DNA of 27,411 nucleotides from contig JBEKBM010000030.1 in NCBI GenBank assembly GCA_050015395.1, positions 1 to 27,411 on the forward strand. The letters are read 5' to 3'. Below, piece by piece: positions 12,803 to 24,218 of the stretch. A program made the translations under genes and the position numbers. The DNA comes from Candidatus Bathyarchaeia archaeon (lineage in GTDB: Archaea; Thermoproteota; Bathyarchaeia; Bathyarchaeales; Bathycorpusculaceae). The notes under the pieces were generated by a model. That model made no database searches. It had not been told where the DNA came from and saw only the letters and a list, made by a program, of their open reading frames with translations. Position 1 is the stretch's first letter. Each line of letters starts with the position of its first letter.

Positions 12803-13723
12803 TTAGTTGGGCACATGTTTCCTCAAAAAGCCAATCCTCGAAGTTAGTAAGGGCAAGAGTTTATCTGCTGCAATGAACGCGATTGTGGCGTAGGCGATTC
12901 CGCCTAAGACGTCAGTAAAAAAGTGTTCGCCTAGGTAGACTGCGCTAAACCATGTTCCGACAGGAATCGATAACGCTGGGAGTGCTTTCCATTTCCAAAT
13001 TTTGAACGCGAAAAGAAAGACCAGCCAAGGCATAGCTGAATGCATACTGGGAAATGCAGCGTATGCATTTGGGCTTAAAAAATCAAACAAGGTCCTGTAA
13101 ACAGGAAGACCTAAGTTAGCATCAACTGACCCAGTTAAGATTCGAGTAACGTCTGGAACCGCAATCCATGGGGGTGCAACAGGGTAAAAGATGAAAGTTA
13201 TCAAGGCACTGTACGTTAATACGGCGAAGCCAACGGTGTATTTCCAGTAGTTCTTAGGGCTTTTTTTCCAAACAATATAAGCAAAGACGGTTGGTACAAA
13301 AAAATATATGCCGTAGAAAACGGCTCCCATGTAATTTAAAATAGGCATCTTTATCGTTTGTTGAAGAACAAGGCTGGGAACTTGACCGAACATTAGCACA
13401 TCGAAATTGTATGGTCCTACATGAAGGTTGTACTGTGAGATAGTGCCTATGAAACTATACATAACTTCATAAGAGACAAACACCGTAACGAATGGAAGCC
13501 AATCTTTAAGGGCATGCCAGGTCCGTTCATTATACGTACAGTAAATTAGGATGCCTAAAACTAGAAATTCAGGCCCCGGAATAATTTTGTATTCCACGCA
13601 GAAGATAGCCACGGCCACTATGTATAGTGACGATAAAAGAAGAGAGAAGAAGCGGGTAGAGTGATAATTAATATTTTTTAATGCAAGCCTGGATTTCTCG
13701 TCTTCTTCTTGTTTTTTTTCCAT
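12803..13723 (-). CDS. PAP2-superfamily membrane enzyme (Aur1/IPC-synthase-like)
   Basis: YPVAPPW, AAFPSMH and YLGEHFFTDVLGG motifs; multiple transmembrane segments. Confidence 0.88.
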   Translation of the reverse strand: MEKKQEEDEKSRLALKNINYHSTRFFSLLLSSLYIVAVAIFCVEYKIIPGPEFLVLGILIYCTYNERTWHALKDWLPFVTVFVSYEVMYSFIGTISQYNLHVGPYNFDVLMFGQVPSLVLQQTIKMPILNYMGAVFYGIYFFVPTVFAYIVWKKSPKNYWKYTVGFAVLTYSALITFIFYPVAPPWIAVPDVTRILTGSVDANLGLPVYRTLFDFLSPNAYAAFPSMHSAMPWLVFLFAFKIWKWKALPALSIPVGTWFSAVYLGEHFFTDVLGGIAYATIAFIAADKLLPLLTSRIGFLRKHVPN

Positions 13724-14067
13724 TATGTAATCGTTACCAGCAAGTTAGCTTGTTTGTTGCTTTTTAAATGCTTTTTCCCAATTCCACCCCTAAAAAACAA
13801 AATACTTAGACAAATGATGGATTAAAATAGATACCTGCAAGCCCGTACCTTAAAACAAAAGAAATATGATGGTTTATAGCCCTATATAACAGGACGCGAT
13901 GCTCTCCAGCAAAACTTTTCTTTATACTTTTGACCTAAAGCACTTTGACCTCTAAATACTCAAGGACTCAGGCTCTTTAAATAGCCATTTCGCGGGTATT
14001 CGGTTCCGTTTTTCAGCGTTAGCCACAGTGAAGCGGGGGGGCGGGTCAATTTAACTAGCGAAAACTT

Positions 14068-14289: not shown

Positions 14290-14925
14290 TTAGGCTGACA
14301 TCAAATAGCTTGAGTTGCCGTAATAAGCAACGTTTCTAGCCACGGTTCTAGCTGCATGTGAGCTTTGGCAAAGCTTGCCGATATTTGCCATGAGCTGATA
14401 AGAAGCCTTCAACGCTAAGTTCAAGTTGTTGTTTGTTAAGAATTTTGCTTCTATGTTAAGCGCTGTTCCTTGAATGTTTGCGGCTATTTGGATGCCACCG
14501 TCTTCCGTGATCCACTTTAAGGTGACGCCTTGACTATTTTCTGATATGCCTAGCCAACGTAGCAAACCGAACCATTTGCCTTTAAGCGCCAAGATGAGTT
14601 GTTGCGTCATAAGGTCTGATGGAAGGAAAGTTTGAATCAGCGGCGTTGTTGGTTCTTCTTTGCGTGCTTGGTTAAGTTTTAGTTCAGTTATCTTTGGAGT
14701 GACCCTGTAGCCTTCGGGTCCTTTTTTCACGATGCCCTCTTGCTCCAGTCGGGCAAGTATGCGAGAGAGCGTTTCCGGATGCAGTCCTGTTCTTCGTTTT
14801 AACCCGTCGAATGTGAATATAGCTAAGTCTTCGTTTTCTATTAGCGCCAATACGTCAGCATCGCGTTCGCTAAGGGAGTAGTCGGCTGGAAGGCTTTGCC
14901 AATTAACATTCAGAACAGGTATCAT
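14290..14925 (-). CDS. winged-helix DNA-binding domain protein
   Basis: FTFDGLKRRTGLHPETLSRILARLEQEGIVKK..GY wHTH plus an unassigned C-terminal domain; ATG at 14925 preferred. Confidence 0.75.
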   Translation of the reverse strand: MIPVLNVNWQSLPADYSLSERDADVLALIENEDLAIFTFDGLKRRTGLHPETLSRILARLEQEGIVKKGPEGYRVTPKITELKLNQARKEEPTTPLIQTFLPSDLMTQQLILALKGKWFGLLRWLGISENSQGVTLKWITEDGGIQIAANIQGTALNIEAKFLTNNNLNLALKASYQLMANIGKLCQSSHAARTVARNVAYYGNSSYLMSA

Positions 14926-15144
14926 TATTTTAATGTTTTTGAGACGTCGCTTTTGAATGTTATCCCATCTTTGCAAGAAAAGCAACGTTCAATATTGTTG
15001 AATACTTTGGTTAACTTAATTAAGATTGCATTTGATGGAAAGTCTAAAGAAGCCCCTTATGTCATAAGAAATAATGTTCTGTGAAGTCTTCAGCTGATTT
15101 GGGGTTTCTTGTGAAATTTTGGTTGGCGATTTTTGTTTTGATTG

Positions 15145-15798
15145 TTACCTTAAGGTCACTTTTTCGCCGGTGGCAATGTAGACTACGGCTTCCATGATGT
15201 GCGTCGCGTGATCCGCAATACGCTCAAGATATCTTACTACGAGCGTGCTGGAGATAGTGCACTCGTTCGTGACGCCTGCCTCCTCCACAAGTTTGCCCAG
15301 ATACTCAAGGTACATGTCATCTACTTCTTGCTCTGTTTTAGTCATCGTCTTAACGAGTTCCGTATCTAGGCTTTTAAGGGAGTTAATGCTTATCGTGACC
15401 ATTTGAAGAACTTTTTCAGCCATTTTCCCGATGTACTCATATATCCATTTATCACAAGTGCTTAGCCCATTGAAACGCGTGCTGATAAAGGATATGTCCC
15501 AAGCATACCTGCCGTAACGCTCAAAATCGTAGGCGACTTTCATGTAAGAGTTTATGATTCGTAAGTCAGAAGCTACAGGCTGATACTTTGCTATCAAACT
15601 AAAAGCTTTTTCCTCAACCTCAACAGTCCTGCCTACGAGAATTTCGGAGAGTTCATGCACATCCTCGGATGCGTCTTTACCTTCAAGAAATCCTCTTACT
15701 GATATTGCCACGGCTTTCTCGGCGACTTTACCCATCTTGTAAACCATTGCTGTAAATTCTTCTAAGCCTTTATCTAACAGTCTTTGCATAATGTTCAC
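15145..15798 (-). CDS. phoU: phosphate signalling protein PhoU
   Basis: QPVASDLR, DFERYGRYA, RYLERIADHATHI; last gene of the pst operon. Confidence 0.93.
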   Translation of the reverse strand: MNIMQRLLDKGLEEFTAMVYKMGKVAEKAVAISVRGFLEGKDASEDVHELSEILVGRTVEVEEKAFSLIAKYQPVASDLRIINSYMKVAYDFERYGRYAWDISFISTRFNGLSTCDKWIYEYIGKMAEKVLQMVTISINSLKSLDTELVKTMTKTEQEVDDMYLEYLGKLVEEAGVTNECTISSTLVVRYLERIADHATHIMEAVVYIATGEKVTLR

Positions 15799-15799
15799 T

Positions 15800-16567
15800 T
15801 TATCCGAACTTTCCAGTTATGTATTTTTCTGTTAATTCACTTTTTGGGTTCTCGAATACTTCTGAAGTTGTGTCAAACTCTATAAGCTGACCCAGATACA
15901 TGAAAGCAGTGAAATCCGAAACCCGAGCAGCCTGCTGCATATTATGCGTCACAATTACAATTGTAAAGTCCTTCTTAAGCGCAACAATTGACTCTTCAAT
16001 TTTAGCTGTGGCGATAGGGTCAAGAGCGGAGCAGGGCTCATCCATAAGAATAACTTCTGGCTCAACCGCAAGAGCTCGTGCTATGCATAGTCTCTGCTGT
16101 TGTCCCCCCGACAAGTTAACTCCAGGTTTCTTGAGATCATCTTTGACTTCGTCCCAGAGGAAAGCCATTCGAAGACTTCTTTCGACCACGCTGTCGAGTG
16201 TCTCTTTGTTTCTTACACCAGCGAGTTTCAAGCCTGCTATCGCATTATCATATATAGACATTGTAGGAAAGGGATTGGCCTTCTGGAAAACCATACCTAT
16301 TCTTCTGCGGATTGCAACTGGATCAACTTGTGGAGAATAAATGTTTACTCCATCTAAAATGACCTCTCCTTCGACTTTTGCATTCGGAGTCAATTCGTGA
16401 ATTCGGTTGAGGCATCTTATGAACGTAGTTTTTCCGCATCCGGAAGGACCCATAATTGCAGTTATGCTATTTTCAGGGAAGTTTAGGTTAATCCCTTTCA
16501 GAACTTGTACTTTGCCAAATCTAGCTTTCAAGTCTCTCGTTGCTAGTTTAACTGTCGATGAATCCAA
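15800..16567 (-). CDS. pstB: phosphate ABC transporter ATP-binding protein
   Basis: [51 protein letters not shown]. Confidence 0.97.
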
Positions 16568-16645
16568 GTTTTTATATTTACTTATTTTTAATTGTCCCTC
16601 CTAACTTGATTTTGTATGTAGCCTATTGAATTTTTGGCCGTTACC

Positions 16646-17518
16646 CTACATCTCCATTCTTGTTCCTGTTAGACTTCTTCCTATAGTAAGCTTGACCAAA
16701 AGATTCAAGCCAAGCATAATGAGTATTAGGACTAAAGCTGCTCCCCACGCCTGAGCTTGCCAAGTTGCGTACGGAGAAGTACCGTAATTGTAGATGAGAA
16801 CTGTCAATGAGGCTGTTGGCTGAAATAAACTTGTTGCAAAGTAACTGCTTGTAGCCGCTGTATATAGTAATGGAGCTGTTTCTCCTGTTGCACGCGCCAC
16901 GCCCAATAGTATGCCAGTTAAGAGCCCATTTTTCCCTGTGCTTATAACGACTCTGAGCACGGTTTTCCATCTTGGGATTCCAAGCGCCATCGAGGCTTCT
17001 CTCAATGTCATTGGGACAAGCTTAAGAGATTCATCTGTTGTCCGTGCAATGATAGGAATCATTACAAAACTCAAAGCGACACCACCTGCAAAAGCAGAAA
17101 ATTCTTTGGTAGTCAATACAATTACAATGAAAACGAACAGCCCTAATACCATTGAAGGAAATCCGGTAAGTACATCGTTCATAAAACCTGAAACGGTAGA
17201 AAGCTTAGATGAAGGCCATTCTGAAAAAAAGATGCCTGCTCCAACACCGATTGGTATGGAGATAAGGGCGGCTAAACCCACCATCGTGAAAGATCCAACT
17301 ATTGCATTGGCTATTCCTCCACCTGGAAAAGTCGGTGCAGTCGGCAAATGAGTTAGGAACCCCAAATTTATGGCTGACGCTCCCTTTATGAAAATGTCTC
17401 CGAGTATGAGTACTAAGGGTACTATTGCTAGAACTACAGCTGCGATTACTGCAATGGTCATTATCTTGTTAACAACTTTCCGCCACATCGAAATTCTCGG
17501 AGGGTTAAATTTTGTCAT
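16646..17518 (-). CDS. pstA: phosphate ABC transporter permease PstA
   Basis: LREASMALG, GVARATGETAPLL; ATG at 17518 after GAGGAG (ORF track begins at 17536). Confidence 0.95.
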   Translation of the reverse strand: MTKFNPPRISMWRKVVNKIMTIAVIAAVVLAIVPLVLILGDIFIKGASAINLGFLTHLPTAPTFPGGGIANAIVGSFTMVGLAALISIPIGVGAGIFFSEWPSSKLSTVSGFMNDVLTGFPSMVLGLFVFIVIVLTTKEFSAFAGGVALSFVMIPIIARTTDESLKLVPMTLREASMALGIPRWKTVLRVVISTGKNGLLTGILLGVARATGETAPLLYTAATSSYFATSLFQPTASLTVLIYNYGTSPYATWQAQAWGAALVLILIMLGLNLLVKLTIGRSLTGTRMEM

Positions 17519-17532
17519 TACCGTAGCTCCTC

Positions 17533-18531
17533 TCAAATCTTAACCCGCGTACCACGAGTCATCCTCCAAAGCAGAAGTCTTGCAAAAATGTTGATTACTA
17601 GCGCCACCAAAAACAGGATTAGTGCTATTTCAATTATGGCAGATTGATAAAGTCCTGAAGACTCCCCGAATTCATTTGCTATTAGCGAAGATAAAGTGTA
17701 GCCACCCGAAAATAAGTTTGCAGTAATTCTAGGAGTGTTGCCAATCACCATAGTGACCGCCATTGTTTCGCCGACAGCACGCCCCAAGCCAAGAATGAAC
17801 GCGCCAAATATACCTGACCGAGCATAGGGCAAGACACTTTTCTGCGTAACTTCCCATTCCGTAGCGCCAAGCGAGTACATTGCTTCCCGCTGACTATTTG
17901 GAACGGCGTTCAAAACGTTCCTAGAAACGGCAGACATTGTTGGAATTATCATTATCGCTAATATAATTCCAGCAGTAAAAAAATCCAATCCAAAAGGAGT
18001 TCCTGAGAATAATGGGATGAAACCAAGAGACTGATGTAAGGGCTTTTCCACATAATCACGTAAGAAGGGACTTAGGATTAACAGTCCCCATAGACCATAA
18101 ATAACACTGGGCACTGCCGCAAGGAGATCGACAACTGTTCCCAATAAATAACCAAAGCCTTGGTGGCTTTTCAGCCTCTCTGAGATAAAGATTGCTACTC
18201 CCAGACTGATCGGGAGTCCTATAAGAATAGCAATCGCAGACGTTAACAATGTTCCATAAATAAACGGCAAAGCACCAAAAATTTCATGTACTGGATCCCA
18301 GGTTCGCCCAATTAAAAAGGCTGGCCCAAATTCACCTATGGAGGCAGCTGAACCTGCATAAAGCTCGACTGCAAGTGCAACAAGAAGACCTATTATGAAT
18401 AGAGCTGCAGCGGCAACAATTACTTTTAGGATTACGTCTCCTCTTAGCACTTTGATATGCAATTTAGGCCTTGCCTCATTATTTTTCGGTGATAATAAAA
18501 AAATAGGGAAAAATATCCAATTAAAAGCCAT
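17533..18531 (-). CDS. pstC: phosphate ABC transporter permease PstC
   Basis: LAAVPSVIYGLWG, LGLGRAVGETMAVTMVIGN, IANEFGE; the true start may be further downstream. Confidence 0.95.
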   Translation of the reverse strand: MAFNWIFFPIFLLSPKNNEARPKLHIKVLRGDVILKVIVAAAALFIIGLLVALAVELYAGSAASIGEFGPAFLIGRTWDPVHEIFGALPFIYGTLLTSAIAILIGLPISLGVAIFISERLKSHQGFGYLLGTVVDLLAAVPSVIYGLWGLLILSPFLRDYVEKPLHQSLGFIPLFSGTPFGLDFFTAGIILAIMIIPTMSAVSRNVLNAVPNSQREAMYSLGATEWEVTQKSVLPYARSGIFGAFILGLGRAVGETMAVTMVIGNTPRITANLFSGGYTLSSLIANEFGESSGLYQSAIIEIALILFLVALVINIFARLLLWRMTRGTRVKI

Positions 18532-18536
18532 GCTCC

Positions 18537-19661
18537 CTACTTTATGGGCGTTCCATTGTATGTTATCTGGCCAATGGTTGTGTTGTCAATTGCGATTATA
18601 TTAGCTGGCAACGGAACATAGCCTAATCCACTTCCATCTGCCTGGCCTGTATTCACGATCCATGAAATGAAGTTAACGAGTGCGGCACCTTGAACATCAC
18701 TAGTCTGTTGTTGATATACCAGAAGGTAAGTGAGCGTCGTGATCGGATAGGCGTTTGTTGCTGCTGTATTGCTGTATATGCTGTCGACTATAGAGACCTT
18801 TGTCCATGCTGCGTTCCCTGCTGGAAGACCAGAAGAGGCCCCGGCTTGAAGCGCGGCTGCTATGTTTGTCACGTTGGCTAAGATGTAGTTGCCAGCGGCA
18901 TTTTGTACTGCTCCATATGAGATTTGATTTGGGTTCTGTATTTCATAGGCTATTTCAAGTGGACCAATTGAGCCAGATGTATCAACAATCCCGGCTGCTA
19001 CACCAGCATTTTTTGGTTCTCCTATGCCGACTGGCCAGTTAACAGATGTTCCTTTTCCAACCGTTGTGTTCCATACACTACTTGCTTGAGACAAGTAATC
19101 AGTGAAGGCATACATGGTTCCGCTTCCGTCAGACCTGTGAATTACGGTTATTGCTAGATTGGGCAAGGTTGTGCCTGGGTTTAGAGCTGCAATGGCTGGA
19201 TCGTTCCAATTAGTTATTTTCCCCAAGAAAATGTTGGCTAGAAGTGCGCCCGTGAAATTGAGGCCGTTACTTATTCCCGGTATGTTATATGCTGGTACGA
19301 CTCCGCTGGCGGACTCGGGTATTGTCAAGACTGTTGAACCAGCTGCCGTGTATTGTGCCGCGGTCATTGGCGCGTCTGAAGCGCCGAAGTCGACTAATTT
19401 TTTAGTAAGGTCAGTGATGCCTGTTCCACTTCCAACGGGGCTGTAGTCAACTTTTATGTTGGGTTGGGCCTGCGCATAGACAGGTGTCCAAATAGACATA
19501 AGCGGGAAGACAAGTGTAGATCCTGCTCCGGTTAATGTTGCTGCCGCTAGTGTTGAAGTAGACGTCTTTGCGGGAGTTGATAAGGATATGTAAGCGAAGA
19601 CTCCTCCTATGATAATGACGATTACAACAATTGCTGCTATAATTATATACATATTTTTCAT
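18537..19661 (-). CDS. pstS: phosphate ABC transporter substrate-binding protein with an N-terminal membrane anchor
   Basis: GAGST, GSGTG, DFGASDAP, HRSDGSGT, YPI motifs; ATG at 19661 or GTG at 19685. Confidence 0.96.
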   Translation of the reverse strand: MKNMYIIIAAIVVIVIIIGGVFAYISLSTPAKTSTSTLAAATLTGAGSTLVFPLMSIWTPVYAQAQPNIKVDYSPVGSGTGITDLTKKLVDFGASDAPMTAAQYTAAGSTVLTIPESASGVVPAYNIPGISNGLNFTGALLANIFLGKITNWNDPAIAALNPGTTLPNLAITVIHRSDGSGTMYAFTDYLSQASSVWNTTVGKGTSVNWPVGIGEPKNAGVAAGIVDTSGSIGPLEIAYEIQNPNQISYGAVQNAAGNYILANVTNIAAALQAGASSGLPAGNAAWTKVSIVDSIYSNTAATNAYPITTLTYLLVYQQQTSDVQGAALVNFISWIVNTGQADGSGLGYVPLPANIIAIDNTTIGQITYNGTPIK

Positions 19662-19715
19662 TCTTTTACCCTTCAAATAAACCACTATTTAGCGCTTCAT
19701 TATATGAGTGTGCTC

Positions 19716-19739
19716 TCCATAAACATTATAGACTATATA
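19716..19739. promoter_or_regulatory. candidate phosphate-regulon operator, copy 1 (pstS promoter)
   Basis: TCCATAAACATTATAGACTATATA; palindrome TATAG-A-CTATA; overlaps a TTTATATA TATA-like box on the minus strand. Confidence 0.55.
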
Positions 19740-20083
19740 TAAAATCAATGCACGTATGTATAATAGCGTAATATTATATAACGACAGAGACATCTGACCA
19801 TAAAATGCATAAAAAATGCTTTAGATGCGACAATTACAAATGCAACAGAAAACAAGGAACAAAGAAAATTCTAAGTTACAAGTGGATCTGCATTATTCTT
19901 TCACTGCCAAATTAATTGATAACGCGAAATCAGCTTAAAGGGTGGAGCCTGCACCAACTCCATTTAAGTTATTGATAGGTTGTGAATCGGTTTGTGATAG
20001 GTATGCGTGTGTTGCTACTGCATCTATTATTTTGGCTTGGAATTATTGCGATTATAGCTGTGCATTCAGGTTTCTCATAGTTT

Positions 20084-20331
20084 TGATTCATCGTGAATAT
20101 TTAGCTCTTGTTTTTTCTTCTTTAGTGCTTTTTTTCTACATTAAAAAACAGATTTTTCTATGTTGAAAAGCACCGTTCTGCATGCAAAGTGCGCGGTCTT
20201 AGTTCTATGCACATCTATGTTGAATCATATTTGAAGCATATTAGAAGCATCTAGTAGACCGGGTAGGTAGGCTGAGCACACACAAATACCCTTAAGACAA
20301 AAAACGAGAGCTAAATACACACGATTCATCA
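20084..20331. mobile_element. 248-bp element bounded by 33-bp imperfect inverted repeats (MITE-like or long RNA stem)
   Basis: The reverse complement of 20084-20116 matches 20299-20331 at 28/33 positions; no coding capacity recognised inside. Confidence 0.5.
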
Positions 20332-20381
20332 TTTTTTTATAACTAAAAAGCCGAGATTTTATATAGTAAATTTAGTAAATA

Positions 20382-20405
20382 TCCATAAAGTTTATAGTCT
20401 ATATA
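20382..20405. promoter_or_regulatory. candidate phosphate-regulon operator, copy 2 (regulator promoter)
   Basis: TCCATAAAGTTTATAGTCTATATA; 21/24 identical to copy 1. Confidence 0.55.
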
Positions 20406-20420
20406 GATATAACTAATATA

Positions 20421-21506
20421 TTGATGAACCATAAAAGAGCTAACTTGGAGTCAAACGTGACTAAAGAAGCAGAAAAACTAAACGAAGAGCAACGCAAGCT
20501 TCAGGTGACAGGCGGATCAACATTCATACTCTCATTACCTAAAGATTGGGCGATTCGAAATGAGCTTAAAAGAGGAAGCTCAATGGTGGTCCGCGAGGAA
20601 GACGATGGATCCCTATCTATAGCGCCTTCAAAATTTGTAAAGAAAGAGAAGCAAGATGAAGCCTACATCAAAGCATCGTTAAACGACAATCCTGACGCTG
20701 TCATGAGAACGGCAATTTCTGCCTATTTAGACGGCTTCAACATTCTGCACATTAGAGCGCAAGGACAAAAAGTGCTCTCCTCAAAACTTCGAAACCACCT
20801 CAAAACTTTTGCCAGACACTACTTGGTCGGAACAGAAATCGTAATTGACACCCCAACCGAATTGACCCTGCAGGTTTTACTTAATTATCCTGAACTCACA
20901 GTTCAAAATGCACTAAGCCGAATGTCAATAATCGCCTCCTCTATGCATAAAGAAGCTATAGCAGCGCTAAAGAAGCTGGATTATTCAGCTGCAAAATCGG
21001 TTATTGAAACCGACCGTGAAGTCAACCGCTTCGGCCTATACATAGTGCGGCTGCTGAAGCTGGCAGTTTCAAACCCAAGAATCGTTAAAGAAATCGGATT
21101 AAACAACCAAAAAGACTGTTTGGGGTATAGGCTTATAGCGAAAGCCGTTGAGAGAACCGCAGACCACGCAACCAAAATCGCTGAAAACACCCTTCTCCTG
21201 AAAGAGATAGTAAATGTGGAGCTTCTAGAAAAAATAAGTCAGTTAAGCGGTTTGGCTAATTCAATGTTTGAGACCTCTATGGACGCGTTATTTCGGCATG
21301 ACTTTAACTTGGCTGAGAGCGTAATTGAAAAGATAAGCCTAGTACATAAATTGGAGAAAGAAACAGTTCTTTACTCGCAAAATGTAAAGATTGAAGAAAT
21401 CGCTAACTTGAGGCTACTGATTGAGAGTGTTAGGAGAACAGCAGAATACGCCAGTGACATTTCCGAAGTTGTGCTAAACTTGAACGTTGAATCAGTTCTG
21501 AGCTAG
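20421..21506 (+). CDS. archaeal phosphate uptake regulator: AbrB-type N-terminal domain plus PhoU domains
   Basis: RKLQVTGGSTFILSLPKDW AbrB-like N-terminus; DREVNRF, VERTADHATKIAE and RRTAEYASDISE PhoU repeats. Confidence 0.9.
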   Translation: MMNHKRANLESNVTKEAEKLNEEQRKLQVTGGSTFILSLPKDWAIRNELKRGSSMVVREEDDGSLSIAPSKFVKKEKQDEAYIKASLNDNPDAVMRTAISAYLDGFNILHIRAQGQKVLSSKLRNHLKTFARHYLVGTEIVIDTPTELTLQVLLNYPELTVQNALSRMSIIASSMHKEAIAALKKLDYSAAKSVIETDREVNRFGLYIVRLLKLAVSNPRIVKEIGLNNQKDCLGYRLIAKAVERTADHATKIAENTLLLKEIVNVELLEKISQLSGLANSMFETSMDALFRHDFNLAESVIEKISLVHKLEKETVLYSQNVKIEEIANLRLLIESVRRTAEYASDISEVVLNLNVESVLS

Positions 21507-21844
21507 TTTGTTAATGACCTTTTTTCTTGACGCTCGGTTAAGAATGTTATCTCTTTGCGTTTATATGAATGAAAAATAACGGTTGGGGTTTGATTGTTTA
21601 TGTTGGAGATGTTGGAGATAATATTTGTCCATTAAAGGTTATTTATTGAATGGGGCTTCACCTATTTGGACAAAGTTTGATGGCGGAAAGCAAAGGCTAA
21701 TCTTTATGCCAAGTTTTGGCTGCCTAAGATTTTACATGTTTATTCGTTTTTTTCTCATATTTTTCGATTTTAAGAAAATAAAGTAATATATGCCTGCTCT
21801 GTCTCTCACCCATTTAGAGACATGCTAAGTTAAGCTATTCCGGT

Positions 21845-22018
21845 TCATTGAAAGGCTTCAAAGAAACAGATTACATCGAGGCTTTGATTTATGCTGTAAT
21901 TATCAATCAGGTGAGCTGTTCCGTCTGGGCAGTAGACTTTGTCGCCTTTTAAGGTTTTTTTGTATCGTACACTGCATTCCTTAAGCATGGAGCAGCCATC
22001 GCAATCTCTTGAGAGCAT
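21845..22018 (-). CDS. small Cys-rich protein, 57 aa
   Basis: From ATG at 22018 after a GAGGTGA SD: MLSRDCDGCSMLKECSVRYKKTLKGDKVYCPDGTAHLID... Confidence 0.65.
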   Translation of the reverse strand: MLSRDCDGCSMLKECSVRYKKTLKGDKVYCPDGTAHLIDNYSINQSLDVICFFEAFQ

Positions 22019-22183
22019 TCTTTTTTCACCTCTACACATTTTCAAAGTAGAAAATATGTTGAGGCTCCTATAGAGATTCTCTTCATAATCTATATAGAAA
22101 TAATACAGCAAGATTAATTCATCAAAAACTATAAGAAACGTTTAAGAAATAAGGAACCACTCTCAAGAGACAGAGACAGCCTG

Positions 22184-22840
22184 ATGAACGAAAACGGATT
22201 TAAAGTAAAAGGCATTTTCTTAGACTTAGACGGTACAATAGTTGACTCCAGAGAAGCCTACATAGAAGCAGCAAGAATAGCATTCGAAGCCTTCGGGCAA
22301 AAACCGCCAGGAGAGAAGGCTGCATTTGAGATTCCTAGAAGGCTCGAACAAGGTCTCACAATCAGCGACCTCGTAAAGGGCGACTCCAAAAAATTCCTAA
22401 GCATATACTTTGAAACTTACTACTCAATCAGCCGAGAAAAAACCAAACTTATACCTAACGTTTCAGCAACACTTGAAACCTTATCGGCAAAAACTAAACT
22501 CGCCCTAATAACCATGCGGTATATCCCAAAACAAGCCATAATAAAAGAGCTAGAGTGCTTTGGCATATCAAAATATTTTACTCATGTTGTAACCGCTCTG
22601 GATACTTCTAAGCCTAAGCCTTCGCCTGAAGCATTAATAGCATGTGTCCAAGCCCTAGATGTTGAAATCTGCGAATGCGTTATCGCAGGAGACTCAGTTA
22701 ACGACGTGCGGGCTGGGAAAGCCGCAGGCGCAAGAACTGTAGCAGTTTTATCTGGGCTTTTTCAATGCGAAGAGCTTTTCAAAGAATGCCCAGATTTGAT
22801 TTTAAACGATGTCAATGCACTTCCAAAGTTTATCAAATAA
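22184..22840 (+). CDS. HAD-superfamily hydrolase (phosphoglycolate phosphatase-like)
   Basis: DLDGTIVDS, KPKPSPE and GDSVNDVRAGKAAG motifs. Confidence 0.92.
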   Translation: MNENGFKVKGIFLDLDGTIVDSREAYIEAARIAFEAFGQKPPGEKAAFEIPRRLEQGLTISDLVKGDSKKFLSIYFETYYSISREKTKLIPNVSATLETLSAKTKLALITMRYIPKQAIIKELECFGISKYFTHVVTALDTSKPKPSPEALIACVQALDVEICECVIAGDSVNDVRAGKAAGARTVAVLSGLFQCEELFKECPDLILNDVNALPKFIK

Positions 22841-22974: not shown

Positions 22975-23589
22975 ATGAACTTTGTTGAATTGATGATAGG
23001 GGAGAAATTGAAAGAAGCGGATTCAGCCCTAGATATTATGGGGTCAGACCGCAAAGTTTTGCAGGTTGCTTGCCAAGACTTCACGAATTTCCTTAAATTC
23101 CATTGGAACCTGATGGGGAAAGAAGCAAGCCAATGCGAACTAGTTGAAAGATTGGAGAACATTTTCAAGGAAGATTCATCGGAGCTAGACGCGTTCTTAA
23201 CTGTTTGGATTGGCATCTGGTTCAAAAAATGGAAGGAACGAGTCAAGCTTCTCATAGGCGACCAGAACGCTAGCCGATGGAATAAAGTTTCAAAAACTCT
23301 CGCTAACGCTGAACCACTATGGAAGAGAATTGAGCATAAGCAAGAACTCCAAGAGATTATAGTCTCTACGTTGGTTAAAAACGGGGAAATATGCGGAACC
23401 GAAATCTTATCTGAAAATCTATTGAAGTTGGAGCTTGGAGAAAGCGGCGTTCAAAACCTAAGTGACAGAGAAAGAGTTTTCACTGTAGTTAATGAGGCGT
23501 TGAGGAAAGCTCGTGAGATGGCGCAAAGTAAAGGTCCGCTAATCTTTGTCAAGATAGACAAAGGCTACTATAGCTCAGGAACCGAGTAA
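22975..23589 (+). CDS. hypothetical protein, 204 aa, predicted helical
   Basis: Long ATG-started ORF with protein-like composition; no family recognised. Confidence 0.75.
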   Translation: MNFVELMIGEKLKEADSALDIMGSDRKVLQVACQDFTNFLKFHWNLMGKEASQCELVERLENIFKEDSSELDAFLTVWIGIWFKKWKERVKLLIGDQNASRWNKVSKTLANAEPLWKRIEHKQELQEIIVSTLVKNGEICGTEILSENLLKLELGESGVQNLSDRERVFTVVNEALRKAREMAQSKGPLIFVKIDKGYYSSGTE

Positions 23590-23660: not shown

Positions 23661-24218
23661 ATGGCTCGTTTTGTTGTTTTCCTTCGGGCGATTAACGTGG
23701 GCGGCCACACTGTCACTAAGGCAAAGTTGCAAGAAGCCTTCATCTGCTTAGGATACCAAAACTTTTCGACACACAAACAAAGCGGCAACGTAATTCTCGA
23801 AATCGACGAGGCAAATCCAAAAGAAATTAAGAGAAAAGTAGAGAACAAGCTTCGCGAGCTGTTGGGTTACGATGTGTTAGCGTTTGTGCGCACAATCCCA
23901 CAGCTCAAAGCAATAGTTAATCTTGAACCCTTCAACGGCTATGATAAAGAAGGGGCAAGTTTTCTGGTAACGTTTCTTGCTGACGCGCCCTTGGAGTTTC
24001 CGCTCAAGTTGCCTCTAAACATTCCGAAATCTACGGCGCAAATAATTTCAGTGAAGGACGGCGAGGTTTTCAGTGTGACTCATGGTGGCGGTGAAGGAGG
24101 GCTACCTAACCCTTTTCTTGAGTCGAAGCTAAAACTGAAGGCGACCACCCGAAACATGAACACAATTGCTGAAATAGTGGAAAAGTTCCCTGAAAGAGAG
24201 GCGAAGGAAAAAAGCTAA
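23661..24218 (+). CDS. DUF1697 family protein
   Basis: VVFLRAINVGG, QSGNV and ATTRNMNT signatures. Confidence 0.9.
   Translation: MARFVVFLRAINVGGHTVTKAKLQEAFICLGYQNFSTHKQSGNVILEIDEANPKEIKRKVENKLRELLGYDVLAFVRTIPQLKAIVNLEPFNGYDKEGASFLVTFLADAPLEFPLKLPLNIPKSTAQIISVKDGEVFSVTHGGGEGGLPNPFLESKLKLKATTRNMNTIAEIVEKFPEREAKEKS

Follow-up and report, generated by a model that had tools for sequence, protein, structure and literature searches.

The window analysed here is a 27,411-nt stretch of contig JBEKBM010000030.1 from a Bathyarchaeia metagenome-assembled genome (MAG) of 2,594,141 bp in 42 contigs (GC content 42.6%, completeness 98.9%, contamination 3.3%), hereafter called the source genome. It carries a phosphate ABC transporter operon and, divergent from it, the gene of a regulator that joins an AbrB(SpoVT/MazE) domain to PhoU repeats. 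Two very similar 24-bp boxes lie between them, box 1 beside pstS and box 2 beside the regulator gene, and the original prediction, made from the DNA letters of the window, had taken them for the binding site of the regulator in a local phosphate-starvation regulon. Our comparison with related genomes points in the same direction. Judged from its conservation, the box is certainly a functional, specific and selected cis-element, and the two copies very probably form a switch that controls the pst operon and the regulator gene.

The pst locus and its two boxes

The features on which the argument turns are given below, with gene families from Pfam and NCBIfam (the regulator from Pfam). Promoter elements, namely the TATA box, the TFB-recognition element (BRE) and the transcription start site (TSS), were all assigned from their position. 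Box scores are those of a weight matrix trained on 19 unique orthologous regulator-promoter sites, for which the threshold was set at >=20 bits.

15145-19661, minus strand: phosphate ABC transporter operon pstS-pstC-pstA-pstB-phoU
15145-15798, minus strand: phoU
15800-16567, minus strand: pstB
16646-17536, minus strand: pstA
17533-18531, minus strand: pstC
18537-19661, minus strand: pstS
19700-19708, minus strand: predicted pstS TATA box (TTATATGAG on the plus strand), ~43 nt upstream of the ATG and conserved in the alignment of the type-B loci described below
19716-19739, plus strand: box 1, pstS-proximal, 28.7 bits, starting 7 nt beyond the predicted pstS TATA box, where its BRE ends
20063-20083, minus strand: stretch resembling the first ~5 codons and the start of a type-A pstS (motif TATTTAG.TTTCAT)
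20084-20331, no strand assigned: repeat of 248 nt resembling a miniature inverted-repeat transposable element (MITE), with terminal inverted repeats of ~33 nt
20359-20366, no strand assigned: TTATATAG element upstream of box 2, the predicted minus-strand pstS TATA box of compact loci
20382-20405, plus strand: box 2, regulator-proximal, 38.7 bits, overlapping the TATA-like TTTATAGT and CTATATAG of the regulator promoter
20421-21506, plus strand: open reading frame (ORF) of the AbrB(SpoVT/MazE)-PhoU regulator, with its likeliest start at GTG 20457

Both boxes lie where the original prediction had placed them. They are identical at 21 of 24 positions, and each contains the palindrome TATAG-N-CTATA. 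One point needed correction: since both are read on the plus strand, they are oppositely oriented relative to the two divergent genes. A search of the window with a degenerate 24-mer at <=3 mismatches returned the two boxes only, compared with 0.01 matches expected, and none of 100 shuffles gave two or more matches; at <=4 mismatches, the whole source genome held no match besides these two. Furthermore, the weight-matrix scan found nothing above 16 bits in the source genome outside the locus, the runner-up (15.9 bits) falling inside a coding region, and a Markov-simulated genome gave 0 matches above 12 bits. An Rfam scan of 19500-22300 returned a single sub-threshold chance match only.

Could the boxes simply be generic BRE/TATA sequences, the outcome that the original prediction had named as telling against it? 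The 7-mers enriched in promoters of the source genome are CTTATAT, TTATATA, TTAAATA and TTTATAT, with a peak 30-50 nt before start codons, and the boxes do not fit the generic promoter consensus (CTTATATA, TTAAATA or TTTATAT). We counted box words in 2266 upstream regions and, in an overlapping set, in the 1570 with a free upstream region; the gene calls behind both sets are crude. CTATATAG occurs 24 times in the source genome and in 6 of the 2266 regions, TATATAG in 19 of the 2266 and in 9 of the 1570 (2.2 expected), and TATAG.CTATA 4 times in the genome, 2 of these being the boxes themselves. The words of the box are rare and the full box is found nowhere else in the source genome, which is not how a generic element behaves. 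The box overlaps the core promoter through its TATA-like octamers without being only a core promoter.

Conservation and two types of locus

We searched for the regulator orthologue in 41 genomes, 24 of the same genus, and found it in all 41; a further 40 loci came from a species-representative collection. The related loci belong to Candidatus Bathyarchaeia/Bathyarchaeota MAGs, whose isolate labels include bog, palsa and SPRUCE (peat soil). After the removal of duplicates, 54 unique genus loci were available for the box counts. Orthologous promoters keep the boxes, as the original prediction had supposed: a regulator-promoter box of >=20 bits stands at the same position in 49 of the 54 loci (the five below threshold are L008, L014, L048, L050 and L067), including 29 of the 32 loci outside the matrix training set. 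A regulator of another family, 56% identical, has the same architecture with a box of 30.6 bits. More distant orthologues (38-51% identity) have no full box, and 6 of 7 carry one or two TATATAG words within ~200 nt of the projected start.

The loci fall into two types, with 14 left unclassified, in which pstS was absent from the fetched upstream flank. In the 25 unique loci of type A, pstS and the regulator gene are separated by 73-105 bp (typically ~99 bp) and share one box. Their alignment shows a variable stretch beside the pstS leader, followed by a ~57-nt block, 80-100% conserved, that consists of TTATATAG, 6 nt, TCCATAAA, 3 nt and TATAG-N-CTATATAGA.ATA.CTAATATAAT. Type B comprises the window and 14 other unique loci; here the gap measures 500-760 bp, and pstS has a second module beside it, made up of TTATATGAG, 7 nt and a box 1 with its own signature, ..AAACAY.ATAGAC..TATAT. 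Box 1 is clear in 14 of the 15 type-B loci (it has diverged in L044) and keeps a constant distance from the pstS TATA box; the pstS start, ATG 19661 in the window, is kept in all 15. Between the two modules, the sequence is unalignable among the more distant members. The conservation of box 1 is not explicable as that of the regulator's core promoter because no plus-strand gene follows it.

The window's longer gap between pstS and the regulator gene results from the insertion of the MITE-like repeat. The other type-B loci lack it at the orthologous position, and it is no part of the control element. The source genome holds >=20 near-full-length copies of this repeat (82-96% identity) and many fragments, distributed over most contigs. 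A 33-nt inverted repeat (20084/20299), considered as a gene remnant, was rejected, as it represents the ends of this multi-copy element.

How did the window's lineage come to have two boxes? Compared with the type-A genomes, the five pst genes of the window are 42-71% identical, the regulator 79-92% and the HAD-family phosphatase encoded downstream of it 58-89%. Type-A and type-B loci have the motif TATTTAG.TTTCAT equally far from TTATATAG, and the stretch at 20063-20083 that carries it is probably the scar of an operon replacement. TTATATAG itself is still conserved in the window, although no pstS follows it there. We infer from these sequence comparisons that the ancestral form was one box in a ~99-bp divergent promoter and that a divergent pst operon took the place of the original one in the window's lineage, bringing or keeping its own TATA-plus-box module; this would be why the source genome now has two boxes.

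Such a history also leaves room for a neutral relic, in which the boxes would be direct repeats produced by a duplication or by the insertion of foreign DNA. The repeats do flank a gene-less 642-bp segment with a MITE, and the lineage bears the signs of operon replacement just described. On the other hand, both copies persist with their own signatures across 14-15 species in which the intervening sequence is unalignable, the compact loci with a single box are equally conserved, and a third related site is found elsewhere in the locus. A relic is therefore very improbable.

Some observations on the pst genes stand apart from the boxes. By whole-genome search, pstS is single-copy in the source genome. 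The relative L107 looks mosaic, with a pstB that is 82% identical and a phoU that is only 51% identical. Type-A loci L095 and L097-L102 have a second, solitary pstS paralogue (~46% identity) on the minus strand between the regulator gene and the Cys-rich ORF listed below; its upstream region is without the box and contains CTATA-rich repeats, e.g., CTATATTGAACTATAG (arms CTATA/TATAG).

A third site and the extent of the proposed regulon

The remaining features of the locus are as follows.

12803-13723, minus strand: PAP2 gene (Pfam/NCBIfam)
14290-14985, minus strand: MarR-like winged helix-turn-helix protein (Pfam/NCBIfam)
21845-22039, minus strand: 64-aa Cys-rich ORF (Cys-ORF), no known family
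22067-22105, plus strand: third site, a conserved module of CCTATAGAG, a 6-nt spacer and the short box TTCATAATCTATATAGAAATAATA
22184-22840, plus strand: HAD-family phosphatase gene (Pfam HAD_2)

The third site repeats the arrangement seen at pstS. CCTATAGAG is the predicted TATA box of the Cys-ORF on the minus strand, and the short box (22082-22105) equals box 2 minus 9 nt, with agreement at 21 of 23 aligned positions when counted by eye. Of 45 unique loci, 40 match a loose pattern of the module, which keeps a fixed distance of 24-32 nt to the Cys-ORF start, and the five misses are near-misses or diverged forms of the same module. In L101 and L104, the site has a long form with 31-nt spacing, as in the pst module. 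The Cys-ORF contains six cysteines and is conserved across the genus loci (tblastn), always standing divergent to the HAD gene; Pfam and NCBIfam gave no match for it, and its protein Atlas scores are below 0.8, with no informative neighbour. Whether the box controls the HAD gene as well is uncertain because that gene has its own conserved TATA-like element, TTTAAGAAAT at 22141-22150 (GAAAC.TTTAAGAAA), ~45 nt downstream of the short box.

The original prediction had pointed to two looser copies of the box, and these fared differently. One of them, CATAATCTATATAG at 22084-22097, sits within the third-site module and shares its conservation. The other, upstream of the PAP2 gene (13873-13888), is present in the window as written, but 0 of 16 full-length orthologous upstream regions carry it (2 further loci were truncated and are outside the 16), and it was rejected as a member of the system. 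Nearly all PAP2 orthologues have a conserved promoter-like element of their own (AATTGGGAAAAGGCATTTAAAAAG, ~13760-13786, minus strand), which is unrelated to the box.

How far does the regulon extend? In the source genome, the loose pattern CATAW-N0-12-CTATATA gave 8 matches, 3 of them in this locus. Two others were examined and adjoin PCNA/TFS-like and PQQ-propeller genes; of the remaining three, two lie in ORFs and one is intergenic. Five relatives were then searched genome-wide with TATAGNCTATATAG at <=1 mismatch, with the reversed pattern as a control. The four genomes of the same genus match the pattern exactly in the regulator promoter, and one of them (G016) has one extra exact match (C9:55272); in G040, of another family, the pattern fits the regulator promoter with 1 mismatch, and its exact matches lie elsewhere. 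Other matches were about as many as those of the reversed control, and none of the five examined was phosphate-related: they adjoin SMODS, GNAT, GIY-YIG and GDT1-like genes or a family-less ORF. Similarly, in the 14-17-kb stretches from 14 relatives used for the neighbourhood comparison, matrix and short-form matches are found almost solely in the pstS-regulator and Cys-ORF-HAD intergenic regions, the exceptions being one upstream of the second pstS in L095 and two weak ones elsewhere. As no further sites turned up in the source genome, nor at phosphate genes in the five relatives, the visible regulon consists of three promoter regions in one locus. The phosphate regulon of the original prediction is thereby narrowed to the promoters of the regulator, pstS and Cys-ORF/HAD, without PAP2.

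Promoter geometry, the regulator and its rivals

The predicted pstS TATA box implies a ~17-nt leader with a Shine-Dalgarno-like GAAGGG, and box 1 spans the interval of 55-78 nt before the pstS ATG. On the regulator side, the geometry depends on the start codon. The column of GTG 20457 holds GTG, TTG or ATG in 48 of 51 loci and is preceded by GGAG (20447-20450), and in 14 of 51 loci, in-frame stops lie between the position of the upstream ATG and this column. The start is most likely GTG 20457, not TTG 20421 or ATG 20424, and since this comparative analysis placed it there, a leaderless-mRNA reading of the promoter was dropped. If the TATA box is TTTATAGT (20391-20398) or CTATATAG (20399-20406), the regulator TSS is predicted at ~20421-20430. 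Therefore, box 2 would cover the BRE/TATA region and the sequence just downstream of it, which is the classical position of a repressor.

At the pstS promoters of type A and type B and at the Cys-ORF, the same geometry recurs, i.e., a minus-strand TATA box, 6-7 nt and the box. Judged by position, the edge of the box touches the BRE from its upstream side at pstS and the Cys-ORF. From this position, archaeal factors can recruit or hinder TFB/TBP, examples being the position-dependent regulators TrmBL1 and SurR and the BRE-adjacent activators Ptr2 and TFB-RF1. For such factors, binding over or downstream of the TATA box leads to repression, and binding immediately upstream of the BRE leads to activation. 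The position of the site relative to the BRE and TATA box would set the outcome here too, so that one site could have opposite effects on two divergent promoters; the present regulator differs from these factors in having an AbrB swapped hairpin where they have a winged helix.

Of 52 unique loci, 36 have a spacing of 31 nt from TTATATAG to CTATATAG; the value for the window's clade is 40 nt, two others have 38 and 39 nt, and the Cys-ORF form has 22 nt (counted by eye). Indels of about a helical turn hint at one protein touching both elements on one face of the DNA. We demoted helical phasing from an argument to a hint, as there are just two 9-nt events and spacings of 38-39 nt also exist.

Could the box be only an unusually elaborate core promoter, comprising a BRE, tandem TATA boxes and a proximal element, perhaps for a particular TFB/TBP paralogue, and kept for strength or bidirectionality without a repressor or activator of its own? 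Its two TATA-like octamers are plausibly spaced with respect to GTG 20457 and the predicted TSS, an upstream ATAAAG is BRE-like, the palindromic CTATATAG could serve both directions, and the conserved block extends to the predicted TSS. However, the box differs from the generic TATA consensus of the source genome and is restricted to this locus, and its ~25 conserved positions exceed the footprint of TBP/TFB. Moreover, box 1 is conserved without a plus-strand gene and stands upstream of the pstS TATA box rather than at it, and the TCC..AG.CT positions are kept at three promoters with different partner genes. We consider an explanation by core-promoter function only to be unlikely.

If the box is an operator, the obvious candidate binder is the protein encoded beside it. 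At its N-terminus, the regulator matches PF04014 (residues 28-71, 34.8 bits, cut-off 24.7), and C-terminal to this DNA-binding domain are two PhoU repeats (PF01895 in two stretches, 77.2 bits). The core of the AbrB domain, RKLQVTGGSTFILSLPKDW, is nearly invariant within the genus. A PDB sequence search returned PhoU homologues only, with 1t72 and 1xwm as the best matches, and no solved AbrB-PhoU fusion. In the window, the regulator gene and pstSCAB-phoU are divergent, and so they are in all 14 relatives fetched, one of them from another family; the order pst, regulator, Cys-ORF, HAD is also conserved, the figure of 14/14 referring to the regulator-pst pair. A PhoB-type domain (PF00486, Trans_reg_C) was not found in the source genome, whereas 10 of 14 control genomes were positive. 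The general background of the original prediction, that archaea generally lack PhoBR and often encode AbrB-PhoU fusions beside pst operons, is in line with these results, the former as the lack of a PhoB-type domain.

A second AbrB-PhoU paralogue (54% identity) is present in L111, L112, L113 and L028, where it is divergent from a gene for a pstB-like ATPase. In 3 of these 4 loci, its own promoter contains a related dyad, CATAG-A-CTATG; the paralogue was not found in the source genome with the query used.

A genuine operator could also have another binder, such as the MarR-like winged-helix protein (14290-14985) or an unlinked regulator. A short perfect dyad would suit a winged-helix dimer, and phoU is followed after 160 nt by the MarR-like gene, which has a homologue within a few kb of the locus in 7 of 14 relatives. 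In the other 7, however, none was found in the 14-17 kb that were fetched, and no box lies near the gene itself, whereas the promoter of the AbrB-PhoU gene has the box and that of its paralogue a related dyad. Another binder is, in our judgement, quite unlikely.

Our preferred reading, to which we assign a probability of roughly 0.6, is that the box is the operator of the adjacent AbrB-PhoU regulator, placed at the regulator's own core promoter and at the BRE edge of pstS and the Cys-ORF. The choice of AbrB-PhoU as the binder and of phosphate as the signal, sensed via the PhoU domains, is drawn from synteny and from the haloarchaeal precedent discussed below. On this view, the operator would be lineage-specific and would serve a small, local phosphate regulon of a Bathyarchaeia genus from peat soil. 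On the regulator side, it would lie over the TATA region in a position for autorepression, and its presence in the regulator's own promoter fits autoregulation. On the pstS side, the edge of the box, 6 nt beyond the TATA box, would abut the BRE, such that TFB/TBP could be either recruited or excluded, and the shortened module would control the Cys-rich ORF divergent from the HAD phosphatase gene.

Several points weigh against this reading. The related loci are kin, and the locus counts overstate their independence. Because of its overlap with TATA-like sequences, part of the conservation of the box is that of core-promoter function. No such box was found at the other three AbrB-PhoU paralogues of the source genome, and short perfect dyads are commoner for winged-helix dimers than for characterised AbrB proteins. 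Finally, no covariation between the box and the AbrB domain was seen, as the domain hardly varies, even in the five loci with a degenerate box.

A more specific form of the operator reading is possible but tentative. One AbrB-PhoU oligomer may read a phased ATAG/CTAT array (TTATATAG ... TATAG-N-CTATATAG) over the back-to-back promoters, shutting off its own gene and recruiting TFB/TBP to pstS and the Cys-ORF, in a portable arrangement with a recognition code. If so, the module would have travelled with the replaced pst operon, and indels of about one helical turn would be tolerated (+9 nt in the spacer of the window's box 2, -9 nt in the Cys-ORF form). The paralogues would share the ATAG-N-CTAT core and differ in the flanks, which would provide a code for a near-pan-archaeal family of transcription factors.

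The idea is not new in kind, as pst pho-boxes and PhoU-type regulators have already been reported in haloarchaea. A passage of PMC6560208, citing Furtwangler et al. 2010, describes pho-boxes in two pst promoters of Halobacterium salinarum as essential for up-regulation, and PhoU transcription factors are described there as conserved in haloarchaea. Sections of PMC6560208 and PMC6267482 report pho-boxes in the pst promoters of Halobacterium and Haloferax and DNA-binding PhoU-type regulators syntenic with pst. PhoU appears among the near-universal or core archaeal transcription factor families in a section of PMC2872624, and a SpoVT/AbrB-PhoU regulator among the chromatin-associated proteins of Thermococcus kodakarensis in one of PMC7325993. 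Like the haloarchaeal pho-box as described in these sections, the present box is a cis-element in an archaeal pst promoter without PhoBR, the likeness being one of position. Unlike it, the box occurs in another phylum (Bathyarchaeia, as opposed to Halobacteria) and also at the regulator's own and the Cys-ORF/HAD promoters. Our literature search returned no work on phosphate regulation in Bathyarchaeia, no defined operator of an AbrB-PhoU protein and no defined binding site for PhoU-domain transcription factors beyond the haloarchaeal pho-boxes.

The bacterial Pho box with PhoB-PhoR offers a second comparison. As in that system, a shared box precedes pstS and other phosphate genes, and a regulator is encoded beside the transporter operon. 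On the other hand, the source genome has no OmpR/PhoB-type domain, the basal machinery is different, and a dyad over an archaeal TATA box takes the place of the direct repeats that replace the -35 element in bacteria. With the bacterial AbrB/SpoVT/MazE transition-state and antitoxin regulators, which autoregulate at their own promoters, the regulator shares the N-terminal family (PF04014); it differs from them in its fusion to two PhoU repeats and in a defined dyad, as against the loosely defined sites of AbrB.

Archaeal phosphate sensing and the switching of pst are poorly understood, and the Bathyarchaeia are abundant, uncultured and relevant to the carbon turnover of peat and sediments. The proposed operator is closely delimited and occurs in three natural variants; it would offer binding studies an inexpensive starting point, and peat metatranscriptomes could be screened with the motif for phosphate limitation. 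Furthermore, the loci constitute a natural experiment in promoter evolution, with one box or two and with 9-nt indels.

Beyond the system itself, the HAD gene is followed by a 204-aa ORF without a family (22975-23589, plus strand) and then by a DUF1697 gene (23661-24218, plus strand). The order through the 204-aa ORF is kept in most relatives, and the DUF1697 gene was seen only in L094 and L096, many of the fetched stretches ending earlier. Further along, the minus-strand ORF at 25884-26798 matches the Pvc16_N domain at 98.3 bits, a component of contractile injection systems (phage-tail-like) that is encountered here in an archaeal MAG.

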